A DNA stretch of 64,000 nt, taken from positions 638,309-702,308 of the forward strand of contig CAWKAO010000003.1 of assembly GCA_963847665.1 (NCBI GenBank), in the 5' to 3' direction. This document shows positions 6,573 to 26,938 of the stretch, piece by piece; within the stretch, counting starts at the first letter, position 1, and the number at the start of each line of letters is the position of its first letter. This DNA comes from an uncultured Actinomycetes bacterium. GTDB lineage: Bacteria; Actinomycetota; Humimicrobiia; Humimicrobiales; Humimicrobiaceae. The position numbers and the translations under genes were made by a program. The notes under the pieces are model-generated. The model saw only the letters and a program-made list of their open reading frames with translations. It did not search any database and was not told where the DNA came from.

Positions 6573-7433
6573 ATGAGTAACTATGACGAAGAATTAAAAG
6601 ATAAGATACCAGATTTCGAAGAGGCAGAGCACCATCATAAGCAGACAAGCAGCCTCGATATTTCTGCTACTGTGTCTGCCGTAAAAATACACGGATGGAA
6701 GCAAGTTGTAGGTATTTTAGTAATGGCAATTATCATCATAGGCCTCTGGGAGCTTCTTGTCAGGTTGTTTCACGTTCCGGAGTATGTCTTTCCGACACCA
6801 ACTGCAATTATAAAAGCGCTGATTACTTCTTTTCCAAATATATATCCCGATTTTTTATATACACTATCGGCACTTGTGTCCGGATATTTAATAGGAGCTT
6901 CGATAGGACTTATTTTGGCTGCTGTTCTTACCCAGATACCATTTATAGAGAAAATAATAACTCCTTATATAATTTTAATAATAACAACTCCAACGATTGC
7001 CCTGATTCCTTTACTTATGATAATGCTCGGGTTTAATATCTGGCCAAGAATAATAGCAGTTGCATTAGCTGTAGGGCCAATGGTCATGATCAATTCAGTC
7101 ACAGGTTTCAGGCAGACAGATCTGGCAAAGATCGCTCTTGCAAAATCTTATGGGGCGACTACTTTTCAAATATTTAGAAAGATCCGATTTCCTCTTGCAC
7201 TTCCTATGATCAATGTAGGGTTACTTGTCGGAGGTATTTTTGGTCTTATCACTGCAGTTGGAGCAGATATGGTTGGAGGTAAAATAGGGTTGGGCCATAA
7301 AATAGCATATTATTCTGCTCTTGCCAGAATGGGTAACTTTTTTGCTACAATACTTTTAGTTTCTATAATAGGGATTTCTATATGGATCATTATGGCAAAT
7401 GTCGGGAGAAAATGGTCAAGCTGGAGCGAGTAG
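6573..7433 (+). CDS. ABC transporter permease (NitT/TauT family)
   Basis: 286 aa, multiple TM helices. The region SYGATTFQIFRKIRFPLALP resembles the BPD-transporter EAA loop. Sits in an operon with the SBP and ATPase. Confidence 0.85.
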   Translation: MSNYDEELKDKIPDFEEAEHHHKQTSSLDISATVSAVKIHGWKQVVGILVMAIIIIGLWELLVRLFHVPEYVFPTPTAIIKALITSFPNIYPDFLYTLSALVSGYLIGASIGLILAAVLTQIPFIEKIITPYIILIITTPTIALIPLLMIMLGFNIWPRIIAVALAVGPMVMINSVTGFRQTDLAKIALAKSYGATTFQIFRKIRFPLALPMINVGLLVGGIFGLITAVGADMVGGKIGLGHKIAYYSALARMGNFFATILLVSIIGISIWIIMANVGRKWSSWSE

Positions 7434-7696
7434 AAGTCCTGAATTGATTAATAATAGTATTTTGTTTAAAAAGAACTATGAAGGTTCCAGTGGTAATTAT
7501 TCACTTGGAAGATCTAGAAGTTTTTTGTATAGGAAAATGTGCTCATAAGAATATAAATATTTTAGGGCAGATTGATCCAGACCTGTTTATCACTCAAAAT
7601 ACAAATAAATTAGTTTACGAGTCTTCTTATCATCCAAATCTTAAAGTAAACACAAAAAATAAAAATATTTTTGTATCTTGATCTGAAGGAGGAAAC

Positions 7697-8500
7697 ATGA
7701 AAAGTACAATAGGAGTTGTGACTTCTACTTATCCTAATTTCAGTGGTGTTGAAGCTATGGAAGGTATATCAAAAGCAGGTTTTAAGTATATAGAGCTGGC
7801 GTCAGCACCCGCATTTTTCGAGCACATGCCAAGACCTGAAAAGAGTACTGATAAGAATATAGTGGATGGAGTTCTAGATTTATGCAAAAAATACAATCTG
7901 ACCCTGCAAACTATTGCTGGACACACAAGGATGATGAAGGAAGATTCAGTTAAGAATTTTAAAACTGTCATAGACTTTGCAAACCTGGCAGGAGTAAAAT
8001 TTATAACTACAGATGCTGGAGATGTTAATGGAAAGGATGACGAGAAAAAGTTTTATGCTGATGTATCAGAGCTTTCAGAATATGCACAAGATAAAGGGAT
8101 AAGCATATGTTTTGAGATGCATGGAAACTGGTGTAATAACGGTAAGAACGGTGCAGAGATAATAAAAGTGATAAACCGTCCGAATATAAGATTAAATTAT
8201 GACACTGGTAATGTTATTCTTTATGGTAAAACCAGACCTGAAGAAGACATAAAATATGCTCTCCCATATATGGGGCATCTACACATAAAAGACCATGGAA
8301 GTGGTAAGATAGGAGAATGGAATTTCCCTGCGCTTGGTGATGGAGTGCTTGACTTTGATAAAATTTTTGACCTCTTAGAGGATTACACCGGACCTTCAAG
8401 TGTCGAGGTTGAGTTTGAAGGGAAAGAGCATACTTTAGATGAAATAAACCATGCAGTAAAAAAGTCTTTTGATTTTTTAAAAGGTTATGGATATGTTTAA
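7697..8500 (+). CDS. sugar phosphate isomerase/epimerase (xylose isomerase-like TIM barrel)
   Basis: 267 aa, GAAGGAGG SD. Pattern of AGFKYIEL, CFEMHG, NYDTGN and HLHIKD is typical of AP endonuclease 2/xylose-isomerase-like TIM barrels. Confidence 0.8.
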   Translation: MKSTIGVVTSTYPNFSGVEAMEGISKAGFKYIELASAPAFFEHMPRPEKSTDKNIVDGVLDLCKKYNLTLQTIAGHTRMMKEDSVKNFKTVIDFANLAGVKFITTDAGDVNGKDDEKKFYADVSELSEYAQDKGISICFEMHGNWCNNGKNGAEIIKVINRPNIRLNYDTGNVILYGKTRPEEDIKYALPYMGHLHIKDHGSGKIGEWNFPALGDGVLDFDKIFDLLEDYTGPSSVEVEFEGKEHTLDEINHAVKKSFDFLKGYGYV

Positions 8501-8567
8501 TAAAGAATCAGAGTAAAAAAGTCTAGACCATACTTAATTGAATAATTAAAATTTAGGGAGGGGTAAA

Positions 8568-8918
8568 ATGGAATTTGATCATGTAGGATTAATAACAGAA
8601 AAAAAGAAAGATAATGAGGACTGGGTAGAGGATACTCGTGTATGGGTAACTAATCCAAAAGACCATCCCTTTCACGTTGAATGGCTTCGTTGGGAACCGG
8701 ATACTTCTGTTAAAGGTCCAGTTAAAAATGAACCACATATTGCTTACAGGGTAAAAAGTATAGCTGAAGCGTCTAAGGGGTTAAAAGTGTTACTTGAACC
8801 TTTTGAAGTAGGTGGATTTCTACGCGTTGGATTCTATGAGTACAAAGATGGCACAGTGATCGAGCTCATGGAGTATCTTAAAGGCGATAATCAGTGGTTT
8901 GGTAAGGAAACAAAGTAA
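8568..8918 (+). CDS. VOC (glyoxalase/bleomycin-resistance fold) family protein
   Basis: 116 aa. The N-terminal FDHVGL and later HIAYRV resemble the two metal-ligand strands of VOC proteins. GGGAGGGG SD. Confidence 0.5.
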   Translation: MEFDHVGLITEKKKDNEDWVEDTRVWVTNPKDHPFHVEWLRWEPDTSVKGPVKNEPHIAYRVKSIAEASKGLKVLLEPFEVGGFLRVGFYEYKDGTVIELMEYLKGDNQWFGKETK

Positions 8919-9067
8919 GAAAGGCGGTATAGAAAGTTCAAAAAAATCAAGTCTAAGAGGATATTAAAGATTTTTATATTCTTTGTATAAGATTATAACC
9001 TTAATAAAAGTATGTTTAGACTGGGCATTAAAATTTTATTATTTGAAATTAAACAAGGAGCATAAGA

Positions 9068-10075
9068 ATGAGAAGGATAAAATGTGGAGTAATTGGACTT
9101 GGATGGTTTGGAGAGCATCACATAGATACTCTCAAAGAATTACCACTCGCTGAGGTCACGGCTATTTGTACAAGGCGTGAAGAGCACTTAAAAAATATTG
9201 CCAGGAAATATGATATACCTGAATACTATACTGATTATCATGAACTCCTGGCTAATGCTGAAATAGACCTGGTATCCATAGTCACACATGTAAAAGACCA
9301 TAAGCAGATCGCCATAGATGCACTCAAGGCGGGAAAACATGTTTTCCTTGAAAAACCAATGGCGGATACCCCGGAAGAATGTGACGAGATTATAAAAGCT
9401 GTTAAAGAAACAGATAAATTTTTTATGGTCGGTCATATTTGCAGGTTTGGAGTAGATTATGCCATCGCGAAAGAAGAAATTGAGGCTGGTAAGATCGGTA
9501 AGATATTGTCAATACATGCCAAGAGAAACCTTGCTGGTTGGATAACTGAAAGTCACCTACACAAAATCAGTGCATTGTTTGGAGATGGAGTACATGATCT
9601 TGATCTTGCGCTATGGTATACAAAATCAAAACCAGTTAGTGTCTATGCCCAGACCAGGAAAACAAGAGCATCTATTGTTTATGATGATCTTGGCTGGGCG
9701 ATGTTTACCTTAGAGGATGGAACAATAGTTGTCATAGAAAATATCTGGTGCCTGCCTGACAATGTACCATTTGCAATTGGTGCAAACATGCAGATAATAG
9801 GGACAAAAGGCACGATATCTATCGACCACTCTGGTGAAAATTTTAAGGTACTGACAGAAAAAGGCCTTGAATATCCACCAACAGTTTACTGGCCTAAAAT
9901 ACATGGATTAAGAAGGGGATTGTTAAAAGAAGAATTCGATTATTTTCTCAAATGCATCTTAAATAACAATAAACCTGATGTAATAACACCTGAAGAATCA
10001 AAAGCAGTGATACAGGCCATGAGAATAGCCGAGAAAGCTGCTGATGAAAATAGGGTAATAAAATTTAATGAGTAG
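9068..10075 (+). CDS. Gfo/Idh/MocA family oxidoreductase
   Basis: N-terminal Rossmann motif GVIGLGWFG and EKP motif HVFLEKPMA. 335 aa. Confidence 0.85.
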   Translation: MRRIKCGVIGLGWFGEHHIDTLKELPLAEVTAICTRREEHLKNIARKYDIPEYYTDYHELLANAEIDLVSIVTHVKDHKQIAIDALKAGKHVFLEKPMADTPEECDEIIKAVKETDKFFMVGHICRFGVDYAIAKEEIEAGKIGKILSIHAKRNLAGWITESHLHKISALFGDGVHDLDLALWYTKSKPVSVYAQTRKTRASIVYDDLGWAMFTLEDGTIVVIENIWCLPDNVPFAIGANMQIIGTKGTISIDHSGENFKVLTEKGLEYPPTVYWPKIHGLRRGLLKEEFDYFLKCILNNNKPDVITPEESKAVIQAMRIAEKAADENRVIKFNE

Positions 10076-10087
10076 GGAGGGGTAGAA

Positions 10088-11254
10088 ATGCGAATAGAAA
10101 ACTTACCTAATAGCGAATATGATCTCAGGGTCAAAAAATTACAGAAAAAACTTGAGGAAAACGATTTTGATGCTCTTATATGCTATAGCAGTGAATGTGA
10201 GTCCGGCGCACTCAGGTATTTTACAGGATTCTGGCCTTTTTTTGACTTTGCCTCACTAATAATCCCAAGAGAGGGAAAAGCTGTGCTGGTAACTGGAGGT
10301 CCTGAGTCATTGGATTTTGCTGAAGAGTTTTCAAAGATCTCAGACATAAAAGTAAACCCTCTTCTCGTAGAGACATCAGCACCGGAATGGGTCAGGGATG
10401 TAACAGAAGAAAATTTTTCAGGAATATTATCAGATATCTTTAAGGGCACCCCTAAAAAGATCGGGATCTCAAATATGAATATATTCCCTCATATACTTTT
10501 TCTCGATCTACAAAAAGCTTTGCCTGGTGCGGAGTTTATACCTGCAGACAACCTGGTATGGGAAGTACAGGCGATTAAAAGTGAAGCAGAGATCCCTTTT
10601 ATAGTAGAATCCTACAAAATCACTGAAGAATCTTTTAAGGCAGCATTGAGCTCAGTAAAGGTAGGGATCAGGGAATGGGAGATTGAAGCAGTTGCCAGGA
10701 CAAAAATGATTTCGCTTGGAGCAGAAGGAATGCCCTACCCTTCCTGGGTATGCTCTGGCAAAAATACCAGATTAAGCCTCTGCAGATCTACTGACAAAAA
10801 AATTGAAAAAAATGAATTAGTCCAATGTTCTTTTGGTACAAAATATATGGGTTATTGTGGAAATATTGGAAGGGTATTTACTATAGGCGAACCCCCAAAA
10901 AGAATATCAAAACTTATGGATGCTGGTCTTGAAGGTCTGTTCTACGCCCTTGAAGCGATCAAACCAGGAGTAAGGGCAAAGGATGTCTTTAAAGGTTTTC
11001 ACAAGATATTATCTAAATATGACCTGGAAAAATTTGCCCTGTACGGTCCTGCACATGGCACAGGCCATTCAGAAGTGGAGGGGTTATGGCTTTCCCAAAA
11101 TGCTGATTTTATTATACAACCTGGAATGCTTTTTAATATCGATATCTGGCTGTCTGATGGTGAATACGGTTTAAGATATGAAGATGGGATACTGGTGACT
11201 CAAAAAGGGATAAAAGAACTGACATCTTTTAAAAGGGAAAAAATTATTCTTTAG
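10088..11254 (+). CDS. M24-fold (Xaa-Pro peptidase/creatinase family) protein
   Basis: 388 aa with a creatinase-like N-domain and pita-bread C-domain (GPAHGTGH, PGMLFNID, GLRYEDGILVT). Three of the five canonical metal ligands appear substituted (see findings). Confidence 0.7.
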   Translation: MRIENLPNSEYDLRVKKLQKKLEENDFDALICYSSECESGALRYFTGFWPFFDFASLIIPREGKAVLVTGGPESLDFAEEFSKISDIKVNPLLVETSAPEWVRDVTEENFSGILSDIFKGTPKKIGISNMNIFPHILFLDLQKALPGAEFIPADNLVWEVQAIKSEAEIPFIVESYKITEESFKAALSSVKVGIREWEIEAVARTKMISLGAEGMPYPSWVCSGKNTRLSLCRSTDKKIEKNELVQCSFGTKYMGYCGNIGRVFTIGEPPKRISKLMDAGLEGLFYALEAIKPGVRAKDVFKGFHKILSKYDLEKFALYGPAHGTGHSEVEGLWLSQNADFIIQPGMLFNIDIWLSDGEYGLRYEDGILVTQKGIKELTSFKREKIIL

Positions 11255-11277
11255 ATCACAAAGGGTGATTGCTTTAA

Positions 11278-12576
11278 ATGGCAGACATAAAAGATATTGA
11301 TAACTGGGTCAATAAAAATAAAGATGACATATTAACGACACTTTCTGATCTTATAAAAATAAAGACAGTTAATCGTCCGCCTGATGGTGGTGAAAAACCT
11401 GGACAGGAATATCTCTATAATAAGATTTCAAGATTTATTCCCGAGGATTCTATTGACTTATTTGATGTAATCGATGTTGAAGGGATCCATCAAAACAATC
11501 TTTTTGAACCTGTGATCGATGGTATAGAAAGAAACTATAGGGACAGGCCAAATCTGGTGGCCAAACTGAAGGGTAGTGGTGGAGGCAGATCTTTAGTATT
11601 TTCCGGCCACATGGATACAGTCGGTGTAAGAGAAGAAGAATGGGAAGTATTCAAGGACCCCTTTAGCGGAGATATTAAAGATGGAAAAATGTATGGCAGG
11701 GGTATTCTGGATATGAAAGCTGGACTAATATCAGGATTTTTTGCTTTAAAGTGTCTGAGTGATTTAAAAATCAAATTAAAGGGAGATGTTTTTGCGGAGA
11801 GTGTGGTTGACGAAGAGTTAGGCGGTATGAATGGGACTATTGCCTGCAGGATCAAATATCCTGATATTGATTTTGCAATACTGCCCGAACCCACTAATCT
11901 GACACTTGGTATCGAGAATAGGTGCGGAAGTGTTTGGAAGGCATCAGTAGTTGAAAAAGGCCCAGGGGGATACTCGCAAAATATAAATCCGATCAACAAG
12001 TTAGGTGAATTTGTAGAGTTACTGGAAGACTATGACTCCTACCGAAATAAAAAAATGGTTTTTCCTGATAATTTCAATGGAGAGAAACTTCATAAGTTGC
12101 TTATATTTTTAATATATTCCGGGGGTACAAATTACATAGAAAATGCATCATATGTACCAATGGATGGACATCTTTATTTCTATATCCCCACACGTCCATA
12201 TACTGAAGAAGGAGAATTGTGGGGGGAATTTTTAAGTTTTATGGATAAGAGATCAAAAACCACCAGATACTTAAAGGATGGATTACCAGAATTTAAAAGG
12301 ATTTTAAGATATTTTAATGGAAATATAACTGATGTTACTCATCCGGTTTTCAATAATTTAAAGCAAGCATATAACCTAAATAATTTAGAATATGAAGAAA
12401 AGGCATGCTCATTCTTTTGTGATGCAGAGGCATTCAAACTGGTTGGCGGAACCGAAGTAGTACTTATCGGCCCGAAAGGCGACAGACTTCATGGAATGGA
12501 CGAATATGTTGAAGTAGAGAGTATCTTTAGCCTGATCAAGATACTGGCCCATACAGCAATTGATTTCTGTAGTTAG
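11278..12576 (+). CDS. M20 family metallopeptidase (ArgE/DapE/acylase-like)
   Basis: SGHMDTV, GRGILDMKAG and VVDEELGG match the M20 zinc-ligand and catalytic motifs. Confidence 0.75.
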   Translation: MADIKDIDNWVNKNKDDILTTLSDLIKIKTVNRPPDGGEKPGQEYLYNKISRFIPEDSIDLFDVIDVEGIHQNNLFEPVIDGIERNYRDRPNLVAKLKGSGGGRSLVFSGHMDTVGVREEEWEVFKDPFSGDIKDGKMYGRGILDMKAGLISGFFALKCLSDLKIKLKGDVFAESVVDEELGGMNGTIACRIKYPDIDFAILPEPTNLTLGIENRCGSVWKASVVEKGPGGYSQNINPINKLGEFVELLEDYDSYRNKKMVFPDNFNGEKLHKLLIFLIYSGGTNYIENASYVPMDGHLYFYIPTRPYTEEGELWGEFLSFMDKRSKTTRYLKDGLPEFKRILRYFNGNITDVTHPVFNNLKQAYNLNNLEYEEKACSFFCDAEAFKLVGGTEVVLIGPKGDRLHGMDEYVEVESIFSLIKILAHTAIDFCS

Positions 12577-18972: not shown

Positions 18973-20841
18973 TCAGACCTCTTCTTCAAGTTCCTCAGCT
19001 AGCTGCTGTCTGTAGTACAGTTTTTGATAAATACCGCATTTTTTCATAAGGTCATCATGTGAACCTATCTCATTTATTTTTCCCTCTTCCATAACTATTA
19101 TCCTGTCAGAATCTTTTATGGTCGAGATCCTGTGTGAGATTATAATGGTTGTGAGTTGCTCAGTCTTTTTACGGAGATCATTTAGTATAAGTTCTTCAGT
19201 GTTTGTATCGACATTTGAAAAAGAGTCATCAAGTATCAATATTTTTGGTTCCGTTATCAGTGCCCTTGCTATTGCCAGCCGTTGCTTCTGTCCTCCTGAG
19301 AGTGTTATCCCTCTTTCTCCAACGACAGTTTCATATCCTTTTGGAAAGTCCTTAACGTCCTCATCCAGATGGGCAATTCTTGAAGCTTCCATAATAAGCG
19401 CTTCCAGTCCATCATCAGAAAGGCTTGAAAGAAACTCTTCTTTACCAAAGATGATGTTTTCCCGTATTGTCTTTGAGAAGATAAAAGGATCCTGGGTCAC
19501 GTATCCGATTTTTTTGCGGATAAGATCAAGAGGAAGTTTTCTTATATCATGCCCATCTACCAGTATAACACCCTTCTGGGGGTCATAGAACCTGGGCAGA
19601 AGATTTACCACAGTTGATTTTCCTGAACCAGTAAAACCCACAATACCAAGTTGTGTACCTGCCTCTATCTCAAAACTTATATCTCCAAGGACCCAGTTTT
19701 TATTTTTATTGTCATTTCCAGAGATGCCTCTGGCTGACTTTTTTCCGGCATCATCTTTTAAAGAATTTCCTTTTCCAAGAGACTCAAAATCAGGATGTTT
19801 TGGGTATTTAAAAAATACTTTTTTAAATGAGATACTACCGATGATATCATGGACCTTTACAGGATTTTTGGGCTCATCAATATCAGGGGTGATGTCGAAG
19901 ACTTTGTTAAGCCTGCCCATTGATACCTCACCCCTCTGGATAAGGTTAATCACCCAGCCAAGTGATATAAGGGGCCAGGTTATTGCGATTATATATGCAC
20001 TGAACTGTACAAACTGCCCAAGAGTCAATGTCCCTGATATGACCTGTCTTCCCCCCAACAGCAACACTACAAGAGCGCCGATCCCACCTATAAGGATCAT
20101 CAACGGCCAGAAAATGCTTCTTACCCGAGCAAGTGCCATATTCTTATTGATATAATCCTGGTTTAATCCGGAAAATACCTCTATCTCATTATTTTCCTGG
20201 GTAAAGGATTTAACGACTTTAATTCCCGCTATGCTTTCCTGGGTCCTTGCAGAAAGTGAGGCATATTGCTCCTGTGATAATTTAAACCTGCTGTAAAGCA
20301 TCGAACTCAATCTTGCAACAATGACAGGGAGGACCGGGATTGCAATAAGGGCAAAAAGCGTGAGCCTTACATTTATGAAAAACATAACTGTAAGGGTCGA
20401 TAAAAATACAAAAATAGTATTAAAAAAATTCATAAGACCTGGCCCGAGGAAGTTTCTTACAGCATCCATATCATTTGTCATCAGGGCCATGATGCTTCCT
20501 GTTCTATTGGACTCAAAAAAAGAAGAGTCAAGCCGCTGCAGGTGGGCAAAAAAATCGGACCTTATGCTGTATTCGATCTTTCTTGATACACCTATGATAA
20601 GCCGGCGCATATAAAACCTGAACACACCTTCTAAAGCAGAGATGCCAATAAGGATCAGGCTATATTTTATTAGCTGTGGCTGGGAATCCGGATAGTTCTT
20701 TAAGCTGTCTATAACTATTTTTAAAAGCCATGGGATTGCTAATGCAGCGACATTTGTTGCAATGATATATATTATACTTCCTGCAATCGCAAGCCTGTGC
20801 TTTCTAAAATATTTTAAAAGAGTCCTCAGCTGTTTTATCAT
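18973..20841 (-). CDS. ABC exporter permease/ATPase, heterodimer subunit with degenerate catalytic site
   Basis: Walker A GFTGSGKST, canonical signature LSGGQKQR, Walker B ILILDD followed by S (catalytic Glu replaced by Asp). Hydrophilic insertion of about 35 aa before Walker A. Confidence 0.9.
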   Translation of the reverse strand: MIKQLRTLLKYFRKHRLAIAGSIIYIIATNVAALAIPWLLKIVIDSLKNYPDSQPQLIKYSLILIGISALEGVFRFYMRRLIIGVSRKIEYSIRSDFFAHLQRLDSSFFESNRTGSIMALMTNDMDAVRNFLGPGLMNFFNTIFVFLSTLTVMFFINVRLTLFALIAIPVLPVIVARLSSMLYSRFKLSQEQYASLSARTQESIAGIKVVKSFTQENNEIEVFSGLNQDYINKNMALARVRSIFWPLMILIGGIGALVVLLLGGRQVISGTLTLGQFVQFSAYIIAITWPLISLGWVINLIQRGEVSMGRLNKVFDITPDIDEPKNPVKVHDIIGSISFKKVFFKYPKHPDFESLGKGNSLKDDAGKKSARGISGNDNKNKNWVLGDISFEIEAGTQLGIVGFTGSGKSTVVNLLPRFYDPQKGVILVDGHDIRKLPLDLIRKKIGYVTQDPFIFSKTIRENIIFGKEEFLSSLSDDGLEALIMEASRIAHLDEDVKDFPKGYETVVGERGITLSGGQKQRLAIARALITEPKILILDDSFSNVDTNTEELILNDLRKKTEQLTTIIISHRISTIKDSDRIIVMEEGKINEIGSHDDLMKKCGIYQKLYYRQQLAEELEEEV

Positions 20842-21148
20842 ATATCTTCCATCTCAGGGATTACCGGATCTGGTATTTTGTTATTATAATGGATTTGGAT
20901 TATTTTGCATTTGTTTAATACAACCTAAACAAAACACCTATCTTTTTTCGTTTTAATCAATATAAGTAAGTTGTTTTTTATAAGGATAATAAAGGGCTAA
21001 AAATAAATTTGCATAAATTTATTTTATAACTACACTAGTAACGATTATTATTAACAGGTTAAAAGAAATACGGGTATAAATTATTTTTTGTATTCAGGAG
21101 CCAGTATTTTTTTTTGTAAAGATTTAGACATAGAACAGTGTAGTTTAA

Positions 21149-21724
21149 ATGGATAATATTTATAAATATTTAGTCAATTATAAAAGAAGTGGTGAAAAAA
21201 AATGGTTTGATAAGATCTATTATCATTTCTTACCCAAAATCTATAACTATTTTTATTTTAATACATTTGACACCCATATTTCAGAAGATCTTGCAAGTGA
21301 AGTTTTTTTTAAAATATATAAGAACATAAAAGACACAAAATTAAATAGCAGGACTTTAAATTCATGGATCTATAAAATAGCAAAAAATCATCTGATAGAT
21401 TACTTTAGGAAGAAAAAAATTTATACAGACAACATTTTATTGACTGACAATTATGATGATATTAATGATGACAAATTAATTGATACTGATTTTTTTATAA
21501 AAAATAGTATTTTATTAAGAAAAGAATTTAGTTTTGAAAACCAGAAACTTATAAAAGCTATGGACCGGCTGACTTTGCTTCAAAAGAATATAATAATATT
21601 AATATTTATTATGGACCTGGACTATAAGACGATTGCAGATATCCTGATGAAAAAGGAGTCTACGGTCAGGGGTATATTGTTTAGAGCATTAAATATATTA
21701 AAGAGTGAAATCGATTATGACTGA
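21149..21724 (+). CDS. ECF-type RNA polymerase sigma-70 family factor
   Basis: 191 aa. Region 2 (IYKIAKNHLIDYFRKKK) and region 4 HTH (DYKTIADILMKKESTVRGILFRALNILK). Very AT-rich gene. Confidence 0.75.
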   Translation: MDNIYKYLVNYKRSGEKKWFDKIYYHFLPKIYNYFYFNTFDTHISEDLASEVFFKIYKNIKDTKLNSRTLNSWIYKIAKNHLIDYFRKKKIYTDNILLTDNYDDINDDKLIDTDFFIKNSILLRKEFSFENQKLIKAMDRLTLLQKNIIILIFIMDLDYKTIADILMKKESTVRGILFRALNILKSEIDYD

Positions 21725-22595
21725 AAAAGAACTGACTGACAGACAAATAGAAAAGATCTTATATAACTGTATCAACCTAATGAGAAAAGGTTACGATCTT
21801 CAGTACTGTATGGACAAATTTAGTAAGTATAAAGATATTCTATCTGAATACTTTTTAATAATGAATAGTTTTAAGATGTTAGATAAAAAGGCTATAGATC
21901 ATGTAATGGAGAAAAGGATCTTAAATAGTATATATTCAGATGAAGTTTCCCCAAATGACCATGATGAACAGGTTGCAGTACAGATCCCAGATCAAAGAAG
22001 AAAGGTTTTTTTTCGGATATTAAAACCTGCAATAATATTTTTATTTGTATTTGCCTTACTTAATTTTTCATTTATTGGTTTTAGTTATGCATCCCAAGAC
22101 AGTATTCCAGGCGATACCTTATATTCAACAAAGAGGAATATAGAGCAATTGAAATTGGTAATTTATCCCAAATCTTCGAAAAGCATAATTCATTTTCAGA
22201 TTTTAAATAGTAGGATATATGAAGCCGAAAAATTATTTAATTCCAATAAAGCCCAAAAAACTGTTACAGATGTCCTCATCAGAGAAGCAGAAGAGGAGTT
22301 TGACCAATGCAAGAAATATGAGTATTTTGATGGTGCATCTGAAGAAGAATTTGAAGAAGCTATTCTGGATATAAAAGAAAGATCAGAAAAAGAATTCAAT
22401 GAAGAGGCAGAAGAAAAATATGAAAATAATGATAATATAAAAGAAGATTCGAGTAAATCAGAAAAAGATTCAAATGAGTCAGAAGACCAGGAAAGTATTG
22501 AAGAGGAATCAAATGATACTTTAGATGAGGATAATAGCCCGGAAAAAGCTGAAGAAAAAGAAGATGAACATTCTGAAGAATCCGATCATGATTAA
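21705..22595 (+). CDS. putative anti-sigma factor (single TM, DUF5667-like extracytoplasmic domain, poly-acidic tail)
   Basis: Likely start is ATG 21717, overlapping the sigma stop (ATGACTGA). One TM helix (ILKPAIIFLFVFALLNFSFIGF), then PGDTLYSTKRNIEQLK typical of DUF5667. The last 85 or so aa are E/D/S-rich. Confidence 0.5.
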   Translation: MKSIMTEKELTDRQIEKILYNCINLMRKGYDLQYCMDKFSKYKDILSEYFLIMNSFKMLDKKAIDHVMEKRILNSIYSDEVSPNDHDEQVAVQIPDQRRKVFFRILKPAIIFLFVFALLNFSFIGFSYASQDSIPGDTLYSTKRNIEQLKLVIYPKSSKSIIHFQILNSRIYEAEKLFNSNKAQKTVTDVLIREAEEEFDQCKKYEYFDGASEEEFEEAILDIKERSEKEFNEEAEEKYENNDNIKEDSSKSEKDSNESEDQESIEEESNDTLDEDNSPEKAEEKEDEHSEESDHD

Positions 22596-22795
22596 AAAGA
22601 TAAAATAATTTTTTTAAGAAGCTAAACAAAAACCGCACTCTCTTTCGTTTATATACATAATAGTAATATAATCGAAATAATGATTAACTTTATTTTTAAC
22701 TAAATAATTAATAATATAATTATTTTTTTATTTAAAATTATATTCATTATTATTTCAATAATTAATTTTCAGTTAATTTATTAAAGGAGAGAATA

Positions 22796-23857
22796 TTGAA
22801 AACAAAGATCCATTTTAAAAAGATATTGGTATCCTTTTTTGTGGTATTGGGCTTTATTTTTTATGGAGTCTATCAGAGGATAGATTCCAGCTTCCAAAAT
22901 TTGGCAGGAAATTCTCCAGGAAACTCAACAGTTGCTGAATCTATACTTGAACCAGAAAGTAATACTGCAAAAAAACAGCTGAAAGCTGAAGAAATTGAGA
23001 TAAGTACAGCTGGTGAAACTGCAAATGCGCCAAAGAGTAAATTTAAAGATGGACAATATACTGGAAGCATAGAAGATGCTTATTATGGACTGGTCCAGGT
23101 CAAAGGGATTATCCGGAACGGTAAGCTCACTGACGTCCAGTTCCTGAATTATCCAGACGAAAGGAGCTATTCAGTCGAGATAAACAAATTTGCTATGCCC
23201 ATATTGACATCTGAAGCAGTTGAAACACAGAGTGCCCAGGTTGATATCGTTTCTGGAGCCACTAATACAAGCAGAGCTTTTATTGCTTCTCTGTCAACTG
23301 CTCTTAACCTGGCAGCAGTAGATAAAGATATGAATCCAGTAATCCAGGTACAGGTGCCAAAGGTAGACGCAGTTTCCAGTGCCACAAATGTTGCAAGTAG
23401 CTCCACAGGAGTGATCTCAGCAAGTCTTAGCCAGAGTGTCTGGACTGATGCAGTTTCCGGTGCCACAAATGTTGCAAGTACTTCATTGGGTGCACTTTCA
23501 GTAAGCTTGGGTCAGATTTTTGGGACAGATGCAGTTACTGGAGCGACAAACGTCTTAGATACTTCTACGGTTTTAACATCATCAGATCAAAATCAGAATA
23601 GCCAGATAGATATAATTTCTGGAGCAACGAATATTGCAGATGCTTCTGTAAATCCAGCGTCAATAGTTCAGGAACAGACTTCACAGGTCGATGTGGTCTC
23701 AGGAGCTACTAATACAGGTAGCGGTTCAACTACAGTCACAAGTTCCGATCAGTCTGACAGCGAACACGATTCTGATGATGAACACGATTCTGATGATGAA
23801 CACGATTCTGATGATGAACACGATTCTGATGATGAACACGATTCTGATGATGATTAA
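22796..23857 (+). CDS. membrane-anchored FMN-binding protein with six ApbE flavinylation motifs and an (EHDSDD)x5 tail
   Basis: TTG start 5 nt after AAAGGAGAG. K-rich N-terminus plus one TM helix. One full FMN_bind-like domain (aa 84-170 approx) ends in DIVSGAT. It is followed by DAVSSAT, DAVSGAT, DAVTGAT, DIISGAT and DVVSGAT. Confidence 0.75.
   Translation: MKTKIHFKKILVSFFVVLGFIFYGVYQRIDSSFQNLAGNSPGNSTVAESILEPESNTAKKQLKAEEIEISTAGETANAPKSKFKDGQYTGSIEDAYYGLVQVKGIIRNGKLTDVQFLNYPDERSYSVEINKFAMPILTSEAVETQSAQVDIVSGATNTSRAFIASLSTALNLAAVDKDMNPVIQVQVPKVDAVSSATNVASSSTGVISASLSQSVWTDAVSGATNVASTSLGALSVSLGQIFGTDAVTGATNVLDTSTVLTSSDQNQNSQIDIISGATNIADASVNPASIVQEQTSQVDVVSGATNTGSGSTTVTSSDQSDSEHDSDDEHDSDDEHDSDDEHDSDDEHDSDDD
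23366..23770 (+). repeat. five tandem 81-nt (27-aa) coding repeats, each starting with D-x-[IV]-[ST]-[GS]-A-T-N
   Basis: The motif Asp codons sit at 23366, 23447, 23528, 23609 and 23690, exactly 81 nt apart. The first 34 nt or so of units 1 and 2 are nearly identical. Confidence 0.85.
23762..23851 (+). repeat. perfect 18-nt x5 tandem repeat GAACACGATTCTGATGAT encoding (EHDSDD)5
   Basis: Five identical copies read directly from the sequence, in frame, ending 6 nt before the stop codon. Confidence 0.95.
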
Positions 23858-23893
23858 TTAAAATTAATTCGGAGAACATTAATAAATATATCT

Positions 23894-24691
23894 TTGAGCT
23901 ATAGATTGACAATTACGCCTGTGAAACAAACAAGAGATCAAATGGGAATGACTATAACGGTAGAGATAGTAGATGGATTTGCTTCCCAAGCAGACATAAA
24001 CGATATCTATTCATATTTTCGTAGTGTCGAAAAGAGATTTAGCGTATTTAATACCAACAGTGAGATTTCTAGAATAAACAGGGGTGAAATTAAAAAGGAA
24101 GATTTTAGCAAGGATATGATCTCTGTCTTTGAACTTGCAGAAAAGACAAAAAACCAAACAGGCGGATATTTTGACATAATTACAAAGGACAAAAAATATA
24201 ATCCTTCCGGGATAGTCAAAGGTTGGGCTATTTATAATGCCTCAAAGATATTGCTGAGCCAGGGATATAAAAACTTCTATATAGATGCTGGCGGAGACAT
24301 ACAGGCTCATGGAAAAAATAAATATGGATTTGACTGGAAGATTGGGATAAAAAATCCCTTTTCTCAGACACAAATAGTGAAAGTGATCGGTCTTAAAAAT
24401 ATGGGTATAGCGACCTCCGGCACATATATCAGGGGCCAGCATATCTATGATCCCTTTAATAGAAGCAAAGTTTTAACAGAGATCATCAGCTTAAGCGTTA
24501 TAGGCCCGGATGTCCTCGAAGCAGACAGATTTGCGACAGCAGCTTTTGCAATGGGAAAACAGGGAATCGACTTTATTGAAAATGTTGAATTTCTGGAAGC
24601 ATATATGATAGATAAAGACGGATTTGAAGTGAAAACTTCTGGTTTTGAAAAATATTATATTTCTAAATCTGATCAGTTTAAAAATGTTTAG
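23894..24691 (+). CDS. apbE: FAD:protein FMN transferase (ApbE family), no signal peptide
   Basis: MGMTITVEI, PSGIVKGWA, IDAGGDI, IATSGTYIRGQHIYDP and EADRFATAAF match conserved ApbE blocks. The hydrophilic N-terminus starts (TTG) only 12 codons after the in-frame TAA of the upstream gene. Confidence 0.8.
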   Translation: MSYRLTITPVKQTRDQMGMTITVEIVDGFASQADINDIYSYFRSVEKRFSVFNTNSEISRINRGEIKKEDFSKDMISVFELAEKTKNQTGGYFDIITKDKKYNPSGIVKGWAIYNASKILLSQGYKNFYIDAGGDIQAHGKNKYGFDWKIGIKNPFSQTQIVKVIGLKNMGIATSGTYIRGQHIYDPFNRSKVLTEIISLSVIGPDVLEADRFATAAFAMGKQGIDFIENVEFLEAYMIDKDGFEVKTSGFEKYYISKSDQFKNV

Positions 24692-26210
24692 AAAGATAGA
24701 CAATATATTAAATAAAATAACTATGTACCAGACGGTACTATACTGCCTGTTGGTAATTCTTTTTTCAGCGTTTGTGTTGAGTTTTTTTGGACTTATGCCT
24801 TTTAAATCTTTTGATTTGATCTCATCTTCAGTATTTATTTTAGCTGTATGTATCCTTTCCAATGCTGTATTTGCATGGGCATTTGAAGCTCCGACTAATA
24901 TTGAATCCGTTTATATAACAGCTCTGATCCTGACTCTTATCATCAACCCTACGGATCCTATGAAAAACCTTATATTTCTATTCTGGATCTCAGTTTTAGC
25001 TATGGCTTCAAAATATATTTTTGCTACGGGAAAAAAACACCTATTCAATCCTGTCGCAATTTCGGTAGTACTAGTAAGTGTGGTTGCAGGCAAAGCTGCC
25101 AGTTGGTGGATAGCAGGCCCATATATGTTGCCTTTTGTATTTTTATTCGGCCTTCTTGTGGTGAGGAAAATAAAACGTTTTGACATGGTTGCTAGTTTTT
25201 TAATAACAGCACTTATTACAGTTACTGTTTTTAATTTTATACATAATCAGAATATTTTCTCAGGGTTGCAAAAAACATTTCTATATTCACCTCTTTTATT
25301 TTTTGCGTTTATAATGCTGACCGAACCGATGACTATACCTCCTTCTAAGATTATGCGGATACTATATGGCATGATAGTCGGTTTTTTATTTGCACCACAG
25401 GTACACATAGGTTCTGTTTATTTTACTCCCGAGATGGCACTGGTTCTGGGAAATATATTTTCCTATCTTATAAGTCCAGATAAAAAACTGATACTGACTC
25501 TCGATAGAATAGTAAAATTGACTCCAGATATATATGATTATGAATTTATATCTGACCAGAAAATCGAATTTGTACCTGGGCAATATATGGAATGGACTCT
25601 GGAACATCCTAGCCAGGATAGCAGGGGGATAAGACGATATTTCACAGTAGCTTCTTCCCCAACAGAGGAAAAAATACATCTTGGAGTAAAATTTTATAAT
25701 AACTCCAGCAGTTTTAAAAAAAACCTGTTAAAAATGAAAGAAAAAGAAACAATAGTGGCGTCTCAATTATCAGGCGATTTTACTCTTCCTAAAAATATAA
25801 ATAAAAAACTGGTCTTTATCGCTGGTGGTATTGGTATAACTCCATTCAGGAGCATGATAAAGTACATGTTAGACAATAATGAAAGAAGGCCTGTTGTCCT
25901 ATTTTATTCAAACTGGAAATATGATGATATTGCATATAAAGATATTTTTGATAAAGCAAATCAACGACTAGGAATCAAAGTAGTGTATTCAATAGTGGAC
26001 GATACGCCACTGGATACTAAAGAGGGTTGTTTTTATTGTGGTTTTCTAAAAAGTAAAAATATTATAGAAGAGGTCCCGGACTACAAAGAAAGGATTTTCT
26101 ATATTTCCGGTCCACCTTCAATGGTCACATCTTTCGTAAATACCCTTAGAAAGATCGGGGTCAAAAAGACACATATTAAAACAGATTATTTCCCGGGTTT
26201 TGCATCTTAA
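24684..26210 (+). CDS. RnfD/NqrB-like polytopic membrane domain fused to FNR-type FAD/NAD(P)H oxidoreductase domain
   Basis: Preferred start is ATG 24684 (overlaps the ApbE stop, ATGTTTAG); the ORF track start is 24645. HLFNPVA and MLTEPMT resemble RnfD/NqrB motifs. The C-terminal RRYFTVAS (RxY[ST] FAD motif) and FIAGGIGITPF (NAD(P)H motif) are FNR-like. Confidence 0.7.
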   Translation: MFRKIDNILNKITMYQTVLYCLLVILFSAFVLSFFGLMPFKSFDLISSSVFILAVCILSNAVFAWAFEAPTNIESVYITALILTLIINPTDPMKNLIFLFWISVLAMASKYIFATGKKHLFNPVAISVVLVSVVAGKAASWWIAGPYMLPFVFLFGLLVVRKIKRFDMVASFLITALITVTVFNFIHNQNIFSGLQKTFLYSPLLFFAFIMLTEPMTIPPSKIMRILYGMIVGFLFAPQVHIGSVYFTPEMALVLGNIFSYLISPDKKLILTLDRIVKLTPDIYDYEFISDQKIEFVPGQYMEWTLEHPSQDSRGIRRYFTVASSPTEEKIHLGVKFYNNSSSFKKNLLKMKEKETIVASQLSGDFTLPKNINKKLVFIAGGIGITPFRSMIKYMLDNNERRPVVLFYSNWKYDDIAYKDIFDKANQRLGIKVVYSIVDDTPLDTKEGCFYCGFLKSKNIIEEVPDYKERIFYISGPPSMVTSFVNTLRKIGVKKTHIKTDYFPGFAS

Positions 26211-26386
26211 ATCTTTTATACCTGTTTATATAGATCATCTATTCCACAGGCCAGGTTGCCTTTTTTTGAAAAAAGAGTATTATTCTCAAAGTTATTTTAC
26301 AGGTTTTTTATTCAAAACCACCAAAGCTAAAATCAGAAAACCTGTAAATTATTCCGGTTTAAAATTATTAGAAAGCTGCTAAAGCG

Positions 26387-26938
26387 ATGTTTGAATTTAA
26401 TACAGAAATATTGTTCTGGTCCGCTATAGTTTTTGTCGCGATGATGGCCCATGTCCTTACAGGCACTGTGAGGCTTATCATGATGGTAAAGGGAAGGAAA
26501 GCACTTGCTGTAATAGTAGGATTTTTTGAAGCTGCAATCGGTATTACCAATATCATACTTGTCATCTCGAATGCTGTAAGATCGGGAATAAATATTTTTA
26601 TAATCCTTTTTTATGCTATTGGATTTGCTGCGGGCCTGACTCTTGGGATGCTAATCTCCCAGAAGATCTCAAAAGATATTTTGAGTATAAATATAGTGAC
26701 AAAAAACCAGGATACTTCCCTGGCAGATCTTCTCCGGTCCAGGGGATTTGGCGTGACCTGTTATGAGGGCAGTGGAAGAGAAGGTAACCTGAAAGTCTTG
26801 AATGTCGTATGCCAGAAGACTAAACTACTCAGGTTAAAAAAGCTTGTCACATCTGTCGATGAAAAAGCCATGCTCACAATACACACCCTTGAGGGCTTGA
26901 GTGGCGGCTTTATCTTTGATATAAAAAACAGGATATGA
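26387..26938 (+). CDS. UPF0316/DUF2179 family membrane protein
   Basis: 183 aa with three N-terminal TM helices and a C-terminal soluble domain (RGFGVTCYEGSGREG...LEGLSGGF), as in the UPF0316 family. Confidence 0.65.
   Translation: MFEFNTEILFWSAIVFVAMMAHVLTGTVRLIMMVKGRKALAVIVGFFEAAIGITNIILVISNAVRSGINIFIILFYAIGFAAGLTLGMLISQKISKDILSINIVTKNQDTSLADLLRSRGFGVTCYEGSGREGNLKVLNVVCQKTKLLRLKKLVTSVDEKAMLTIHTLEGLSGGFIFDIKNRI

Follow-up and report, generated by a model that had tools for sequence, protein, structure and literature searches.

Architecture of the fusion protein

The window analysed here, the whole 64,000-nucleotide (nt) stretch of contig CAWKAO010000003.1 from an uncultured Actinomycetes bacterium of the Humimicrobiaceae (assembly GCA_963847665.1), encodes a fusion protein in which an RnfD/NqrB-type membrane domain is joined to a complete FNR-type module for flavin adenine dinucleotide (FAD) and NAD(P)H. 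This protein is probably the membrane-spanning subunit of an "Nqr/Rnf-like" system for electron export, a three-gene unit consisting of an FMN_bind partner protein, an ApbE flavin transferase and the RnfD-like::FNR fusion. The feature is real and was correctly interpreted in a first-pass annotation made from the sequence, but the system, with the same model in outline, was already published in 2021 and 2024 on the basis of comparative genomics (Méheust et al. 2021, eLife, PMC8238504; Huang et al. 2024, mSystems, PMC11334425). The features of the fusion gene, with the evidence used to define them, are as follows.

24684..26210, + strand: RnfD/NqrB-like::FNR fusion, 508 amino acids (aa), the candidate transmembrane subunit of an Nqr/Rnf-like system (open reading frame, start codon, Pfam PF03116 and PF00175, full-length relatives)
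24684..25487, + strand: membrane domain, aa 1-268, ~10 helices, RnfD/NqrB fold (hydropathy, structural model, Foldseek, VIA-align, PDB profile search)
25035..25058, + strand: K118-H119-L-F-N122-P123-V124-A125, aligned to R199-N200-F-L-N203-P204-A205 of NqrB (HMMER alignment to Vibrio cholerae NqrB)
25089..25127, + strand: shortened, putatively outer loop, aa 136-148 (GKAASWWIAGPYM) (hhalign to canonical RnfD, HMMER to NqrB)
25311..25328, + strand: I210-M-L-T213-E214-P215, aligned to F342-M-A-T345-D346-P347 of NqrB (HMMER alignment to V. cholerae NqrB)
25485..26207, + strand: FNR-type FAD/NAD(P)H module, aa 268-508, lacking a 2Fe-2S ferredoxin domain (Pfam, NCBIfam, PDB matches, motifs)

The 508-aa product starts at an ATG at 24684 inside the listed open reading frame 24645..26210, and full-length relatives among the matches listed are 50-69% identical to it. 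Hydropathy analysis places about 10 hydrophobic segments across aa 18-265. Searches against Pfam matched NQR2_RnfD_RnfE (PF03116) to aa 157-263 with 32.3 bits against a cut-off of 27.7, and NAD_binding_1 (PF00175) to aa 378-483 with 50.1 bits against a cut-off of 22 (E 4.8e-13); PF00970 stayed below threshold (17.9 bits, cut-off 21.1). With NCBIfam, the FNR-type matches were all below threshold and the RnfD/RsxD matches were very weak. By script, the motifs HLFNP, TEP, RYFTVASS and GIGITP were located at aa 119, 213, 318 and 382, respectively, and 4 Cys residues were counted in the entire protein.

The membrane domain has the RnfD/NqrB fold

An AlphaFold2 model of the whole protein was built from 35 homologues (mean predicted local distance difference test score (pLDDT) 81.9, predicted template modelling score (pTM) 0.70), and the membrane domain was also folded alone (mean pLDDT 81.1). 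When the model of the lone membrane domain was searched with Foldseek, ranks 1-15 were all RnfD or NqrB chains (probability 1.00, query-normalised TM scores of 0.57-0.74), and the next match was an unrelated channel with an E value of 0.5. In the Foldseek search with the whole model the FNR module dominates, and no RnfD/NqrB chain appears among the matches listed; this ambiguity was resolved by the membrane domain folded alone and by VIA-align on the whole model, in which RnfD from Azotobacter vinelandii (8ahx_D) gave a Z score of 22.9 with a root mean square deviation of 2.9 Å over 240 residues and RnfD from Clostridium tetanomorphum (7zc6_D) a Z score of 21.8. A profile of the membrane domain built from 31 members and searched against the PDB retrieved only RnfD (E 8.4e-7) and V. 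cholerae NqrB (E ~0.01). The first-pass annotation had described the N-terminal region as polytopic and reminiscent of RnfD/NqrB, and the hydrophobic segments, the PF03116 match and a fold that matches RnfD/NqrB alone all bear this out. Two outcomes that had been set beforehand as contradicting it, no score for NQR2_RnfD_RnfE and a different fold, were checked with hidden Markov models and the structural model, and neither occurred. The domain shares the membrane fold of RnfD (8ahx_D, 7zc6_D) and V. cholerae NqrB (7xk3_B, 8a1t_B) and belongs with them to the RnfD/NqrB structural superfamily.

The membrane domain of the fusion spans ~265 aa compared with 327-415 in RnfD/NqrB, the loop carrying the covalent flavin mononucleotide (FMN) is deleted from it, and an FNR module is attached; the N-terminal quinone-binding region of NqrB is not part of its alignment with the fusion. 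Unlike RnfD and NqrB, the fusion also lies outside any rnf or nqr operon.

The C-terminal half is an FNR module without an iron-sulfur domain

The first-pass annotation had assigned the C-terminal region to the FNR type from RRYFTVAS and FIAGGIGITPF. Both motifs were located (R318-Y-F-T-V-A-S-S and G381-G-I-G-I-T-P), and they agree with the PF00175 match above cut-off and with the fold of the model, for which FNR-type domains scored Z 26-28 in VIA-align (28.0 to 4eh1_B and 26.0 to the NqrF FAD domain 7qty_A). Sequence matches in the PDB were to T4moF, NqrF and b5 reductase. The module thus has the features of the FNR superfamily, namely R-x-Y/F-S/T, G-x-G-x-x-P and a two-domain fold, and is predicted to bind FAD and NAD(P)H. 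NqrF, T4moF, BenC, flavohaemoglobin and cytochrome b5 reductase share its two-lobed FAD/NAD(P)H fold, and the superfamily motifs RxY/F-T/S-x-A-S-S and GGxGxTP are carried by the fusion as well.

The module is not an NqrF orthologue, as the NqrF model TIGR01941 scored 48.3 bits against a cut-off of 295 and matched at model positions 241-403 alone. NqrF has a 2Fe-2S ferredoxin domain at its N terminus, whereas no Cys cluster, and hence no sign of such a domain, was found in the fusion. An electron would therefore have to leave the FAD directly for a cofactor of the membrane domain rather than travel through iron-sulfur centres and NqrD/E.

Motifs of the NqrB riboflavin site are retained

In NqrB, the riboflavin site is formed by G198, N200, N203, A205, F342, T345 and D346 (Tuz et al. 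2022, PMC9293633; Hau et al. 2023, PMC10643135); D346 is hydrogen-bonded to riboflavin, which lies toward the cytoplasmic side, whereas FMN lies toward the periplasmic side (PMC10643135). The two stretches of the fusion that had been taken for RnfD/NqrB-like motifs, HLFNPVA and MLTEPMT, both align to residues of this site, and that reading stands. The G-x-N-x-x-N-P-A and F-M-A-T-D-P of RnfD/NqrB correspond in the fusion family to K-H-x-F-N-P-A and I-M-L-T-E-P, with an invariant Glu in place of the Asp and a His in place of NqrB N200; upstream of the second motif, F206 of the fusion aligns to F338 of V. cholerae NqrB. KH[ILV]FNP and TEP are nearly invariant among 199 distinct family members, TEP being present in 195 of the 197 members scored. 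From these alignments, both motifs appear to correspond to the non-covalent flavin pocket of NqrB and not to the covalent one, and N122, T213 and E214 would be riboflavin-binding residues kept in the fusion, with H119 replacing N200.

The loop carrying the covalent FMN is deleted

No [ST]GA[ST] string was found by script anywhere in the 508 aa of the fusion, nor in the first 280 aa of any of the 199 family members, and the outer-loop flavinylation motif of the RnfD/NqrB type (S/T-G/A-A-T) is absent from the fusion. In RnfD/NqrB, the counterpart of aa 136-148 is a loop of 40-50 residues with the flavinylated Thr. When the canonical RnfD encoded by the same genome was aligned with hhalign, its ~40-residue DAVTAAT loop faced a gap between aa 148 and 149 of the fusion; likewise, V. 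cholerae NqrB 206-271, which includes T236, was matched by just 18 profile positions. Judged by these alignments, loss of the covalent-FMN site goes beyond mutation, as the whole loop around it has been deleted. The suggestion of the first-pass annotation that the membrane domain lacks S/T-G-A-T and is probably not itself flavinylated is thereby upheld and extended to the family. Because the charged loops KKH (aa 117-119) and RKIKR (aa 161-165) and the C-terminal FNR module would lie on the inner side under the positive-inside rule, the shortened loop is predicted to lie on the outer side, as it does in RnfD/NqrB.

Within the shortened loop, aa 136-142 (25089-25109) hold a conserved x-S-A-S-W-W string in which A139, W141 and W142 are invariant and which distantly recalls S/T-G-A-T. 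It was considered as a cryptic, obligatory flavinylation site and rejected: its final S/T is N or D in ~10% of the 199 members, it has no upstream Asp, and none of the members has [ST]GA[ST].

Partner proteins and gene cluster

Immediately upstream of the fusion gene and on the same strand lie the genes for an FMN_bind protein and ApbE, preceded in turn by a pair of putative regulatory genes.

22796..23857, + strand: FMN_bind partner (NqrC/RnfG-like), membrane-anchored, 353 aa (Pfam FMN_bind, motif positions, N-terminal helix)
23894..24691, + strand: short ApbE flavin transferase without a signal peptide (Pfam ApbE E 1.2e-40, no hydrophobic segment)
21149..22595, + strand: extracytoplasmic function (ECF) sigma factor (21149-21724) and single-pass DUF5667-like protein (21705-22595) (Pfam, NCBIfam)

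The N terminus of the partner consists of positive charge followed by a single hydrophobic helix, an arrangement also found at 68 of 79 related loci. The protein has one FMN_bind domain with the motif DIVSGAT, five more motifs of the form D-x-V/I-S/T-G/S-A-T-N, and an (EHDSDD)n tail. The five extra motifs (DAVSSATN, DAVSGATN, DAVTGATN, DIISGATN and DVVSGATN, at 23366-23770) are spaced by exactly 27 aa and sit outside any FMN_bind domain. At 68 of the 79 related loci the partner has one flavinylation motif; 3-6 motifs together with similar acidic tails occur in a few Humimicrobiaceae/Actinomycetota relatives. The C-terminal tail is encoded by a perfect 18-nt repeat of 5.1 copies (23762-23853), and it may bind cations or vary in copy number.

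The true start of ApbE is likely a GTG at 23921 (VKQTRDQMGM...), given that its relatives begin MKQTRxLMGMP. ApbE proteins of this cluster type are ~245-256 aa long, and the Pfam match comes in two pieces that skip profile positions 76-127. ATSG and H-I-x-D-P are retained, which we take to be the active-site motifs expected of an ApbE enzyme. A hydrophobic N terminus is absent from ApbE at 62 of 63 related loci; the rnf-linked ApbE of the same genome (L090, 1441-2472, minus strand, 343 aa) carries a lipoprotein signal with FFMGC at its end.

The three genes are separated by a 36-nt gap and an 8-nt overlap, the latter between the ApbE stop and the fusion gene, and are bounded by gaps of ~200 nt and 176 nt. 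Scans of 20800-26500 for promoters and terminators yielded no more sites than shuffled sequence did, so the operon structure is taken from gene spacing alone. Directly upstream of the cluster, the ECF sigma factor gene overlaps that of the DUF5667-like protein, which has a long acidic C-terminal tail. These two proteins are possible regulators of the cluster, although the association is weak, with a sigma-factor gene in the fetched flanks of only ~15 of 80 related loci. Other neighbours in the window encode a DUF5698/DUF2179 protein and a butyrate kinase.

Distribution and further copies in the genome

The family was sought in 185,579 species genomes, and gene neighbourhoods were compared at 80 related loci. 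Relatives of the fusion are encoded by at least ~600 of these genomes and, among the matches listed, come chiefly from Patescibacteria, Chloroflexota and some Actinomycetota. The closest relatives among those matches, at 65-69% identity, come from Actinomycetota/Humimicrobiaceae metagenome-assembled genomes. The 80 loci represent many lineages of Patescibacteria, Chloroflexota (Dictyobacter, Ktedonospora, Anaerolineae and Aggregatilineales) and metagenome-assembled genomes of Actinomycetota. The order FMN_bind, ApbE, fusion is found at most of them, and an FMN_bind partner is present at all but three.

A second cluster with identical gene order lies ~84 kb away in the same genome (L005, G000:C3:570000-588000, positions 7119-12046). 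Its fusion paralogue (532 aa, 8533-10131) is 65% identical to that of the window, its FMN_bind protein (7119-7832) has a single motif and a long Thr/Ser-rich linker, and its ApbE (7829-8365) is apparently frameshifted near Pfam profile position 180 and continues in another frame. The fusion gene there is followed by those of a two-component system (response regulator and histidine kinase). On another contig the genome has a canonical rnfC-D-G-E operon, in which RnfD (373 bits) carries DAVTAATPL and RnfG carries DAITGAT. The third match in the genome (L006, G000:C2:100000-116000, positions 8634-9317) is a stand-alone FNR-like open reading frame of 227 aa, 38% identical to the C-terminal half of the fusion and flanked by a sigma-70-family gene and a flavodiiron-type (ODP plus flavodoxin) gene. 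That it might be a broken fusion was ruled out, as no RnfD-like remnant lies upstream.

Relation to published systems

"NQR/RNF-like systems" were described by Méheust et al. (2021, PMC8238504) in 127 clusters, mainly from Actinobacteria and the candidate phyla radiation. As in their definition, the window protein combines an N-terminal PF03116 domain and a C-terminal PF00175 domain in one polypeptide, and its gene belongs to a flavinylation-associated cluster in which FMN_bind and ApbE genes directly precede it in the same orientation. Huang et al. (2024, PMC11334425), who presented an AlphaFold-multimer model of the pair from Ktedonobacter racemifer, report that the flavinylation site shared by NqrB and RnfD is missing from the membrane domain; the window protein has no flavinylated Thr there either. 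They proposed a one-way transfer of electrons from NAD(P)H to the outside and suggested that the covalent flavin of the partner may sample the site for non-covalent flavin in the membrane subunit (PMC11334425). The window system has the same architecture, the same neighbours and the same missing Thr, with nothing different in kind, and the phyla are shared too (Actinobacteria, candidate phyla radiation and Chloroflexota). Relatives from Ktedonobacteria (L021 and L064) are ~50% identical to the window fusion. What is peculiar to the window is the partner, with its six flavinylation motifs, five of them in 27-aa repeats, and its acidic His-rich tail. Deletion of the whole FMN loop and an ApbE without a signal peptide were not found in the cited parts of either account.

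The same logic, a cytosolic FNR module coupled to a membrane conduit that leads to flavinylated or other extracytosolic acceptors, is seen in MsrQ-like::NAD-binding and PepSY-like::NAD-binding fusions and in bacterial NOX (PMC8238504). The MsrQ-like, PepSY-like and NOX conduits use haem, whereas the window fusion is predicted to use flavins only.

Proposed electron path and alternatives

In the proposed path, NAD(P)H would reduce FAD on the cytoplasmic FNR module, and the electron would move on to a flavin bound non-covalently within the membrane domain's inner half, in a pocket lined by H119, N122, T213 and E214. From there it could reach the ApbE-attached FMN of the membrane-anchored partner, docked where the FMN of RnfD itself would sit, and then move outward from that FMN to an external acceptor. 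Such a path would follow the FMN-to-riboflavin step that NqrB contributes to the NQR chain, but in the opposite direction, and at its inner end the FAD of the FNR module would stand in for ubiquinone. ApbE is able to flavinylate motifs of only seven residues (PMC12052999), and one may speculate that the five extra motifs of the partner provide a longer flavin relay and that its acidic His-rich tail targets a cation or a surface. The first-pass annotation had proposed a single polypeptide that couples an RnfD-type transmembrane domain to the oxidation of NAD(P)H in the cytosol and feeds the neighbouring flavoprotein; the sequence and fold tests all agree with this, and from them we infer the electron-transfer activity itself.

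Two readings that take the fusion for a member of a familiar enzyme class fare worst. It might simply be the RnfD/NqrB subunit of a conventional ion-pumping Rnf/Nqr complex, as the fold and the PF03116 match above cut-off would allow and as the name that NCBI gives to some relatives, "RnfABCDGE type electron transport complex subunit D", implies. The dedicated models say otherwise, with 18.4 bits against a cut-off of 207.05 for rnfD (TIGR01946), 18.7 against 415 for RsxD (PRK00816) and no NqrB model among the matches listed; moreover, no rnfA/B/C/E or nqr genes adjoin the fusion in the window, the flavinylation loop is gone, an FNR module has been added, and a separate canonical rnfC-D-G-E operon is present in the genome, which makes this reading scarcely credible. 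Even less can be said for a NOX or ferric-reductase type of enzyme, with a haem-bearing membrane domain and an FNR dehydrogenase. The layout, membrane domain then FNR, is analogous and the whole-model Foldseek search lists SpNOX, DUOX and NOX5, but the VIA-align alignments with SpNOX and NOX5 start at or after model residue 112 and cover ~220-270 residues, mainly the FNR module, whereas the lone membrane domain matches only RnfD/NqrB and Ferric_reduct (PF01794) was not detected at E values up to 0.01. We therefore reject both.

Two further alternatives accept the three-gene unit and differ on what it does. The fusion and its partner could form a two-subunit, redox-driven transporter of Na+ or H+ rather than a plain electron conduit, given that the same region of NqrB forms the Na+ half-channels and gate (F338 and F342), that D346 was first taken for an Na+ residue (PMC10643135, PMC9293633), and that the aligned F206, I210 and E214 of the fusion are invariant or conserved in the family. 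Coupling in Na+-NQR, however, needs NqrD/E, which are absent here, and large movements of NqrC (PMC10643135), D346 is now assigned to riboflavin binding, and no Na+-site residue was mapped in the fusion; we regard ion transport as quite unlikely. A very unlikely alternative is that the partner and its flavins are cytoplasmic, or that the short ApbE-like protein stays in the cytoplasm as a stable subunit, so that the unit would be an internal NAD(P)H:flavoprotein reductase. The retention of the ATSG and H-I-x-D-P motifs, presumably catalytic, speaks for an enzyme rather than a structural subunit; the N terminus of the partner fits a signal anchor that leaves the remainder of the chain on the outer side, as at the 68 of 79 loci noted above, its homologues NqrC and RnfG are outside, and the vacated pocket of the RnfD-like domain faces outward by topology. 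In its favour are the missing signal peptide of the cluster ApbE, at 62 of 63 loci, whereas the Rnf ApbE of the same genome is a lipoprotein, and the existence of cytosolic ApbEs with cytosolic targets (PMC12052999).

Electron export by an Nqr/Rnf-like system remains the preferred reading, and some points weigh against it. The PF03116 match is partial (profile positions 184-286 of 296) and just 4.6 bits over its cut-off. The cluster ApbE, here and in 62 of 63 relatives, has no export signal, yet the partner is placed outside; the partner may be flavinylated in the cytoplasm before export, or the cluster ApbE may have another role. Finally, no biochemical study of any Nqr/Rnf-like member was found in the literature searched. 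There is a small chance that one of two broader departures from the published model holds: a cluster ApbE that is cytosolic in essentially the whole family, with the partner flavinylated inside and exported with its flavins, which would be a new maturation route, or a two-subunit module that, by virtue of its retained NqrB-like flavin and channel core, serves as a minimal redox-driven ion transporter and not as a passive conduit for electrons.

Implications

What the present analysis adds to the published system is the assignment, residue by residue, of the two conserved motifs to the riboflavin site of NqrB, the loss of the loop, and the absence of a signal peptide from ApbE across the family. 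The host groups of the relatives are mostly uncultured, and in one of them, the Patescibacteria, recognisable respiratory components are generally regarded as few. If the proposed path is correct, an all-flavin route out of the cell for electrons from NAD(P)H, free of both haem and iron-sulfur centres, would be the simplest known derivative of Nqr/Rnf, and the fusion with its partner would offer a tractable two-protein model for the passage of electrons across NqrB/RnfD.

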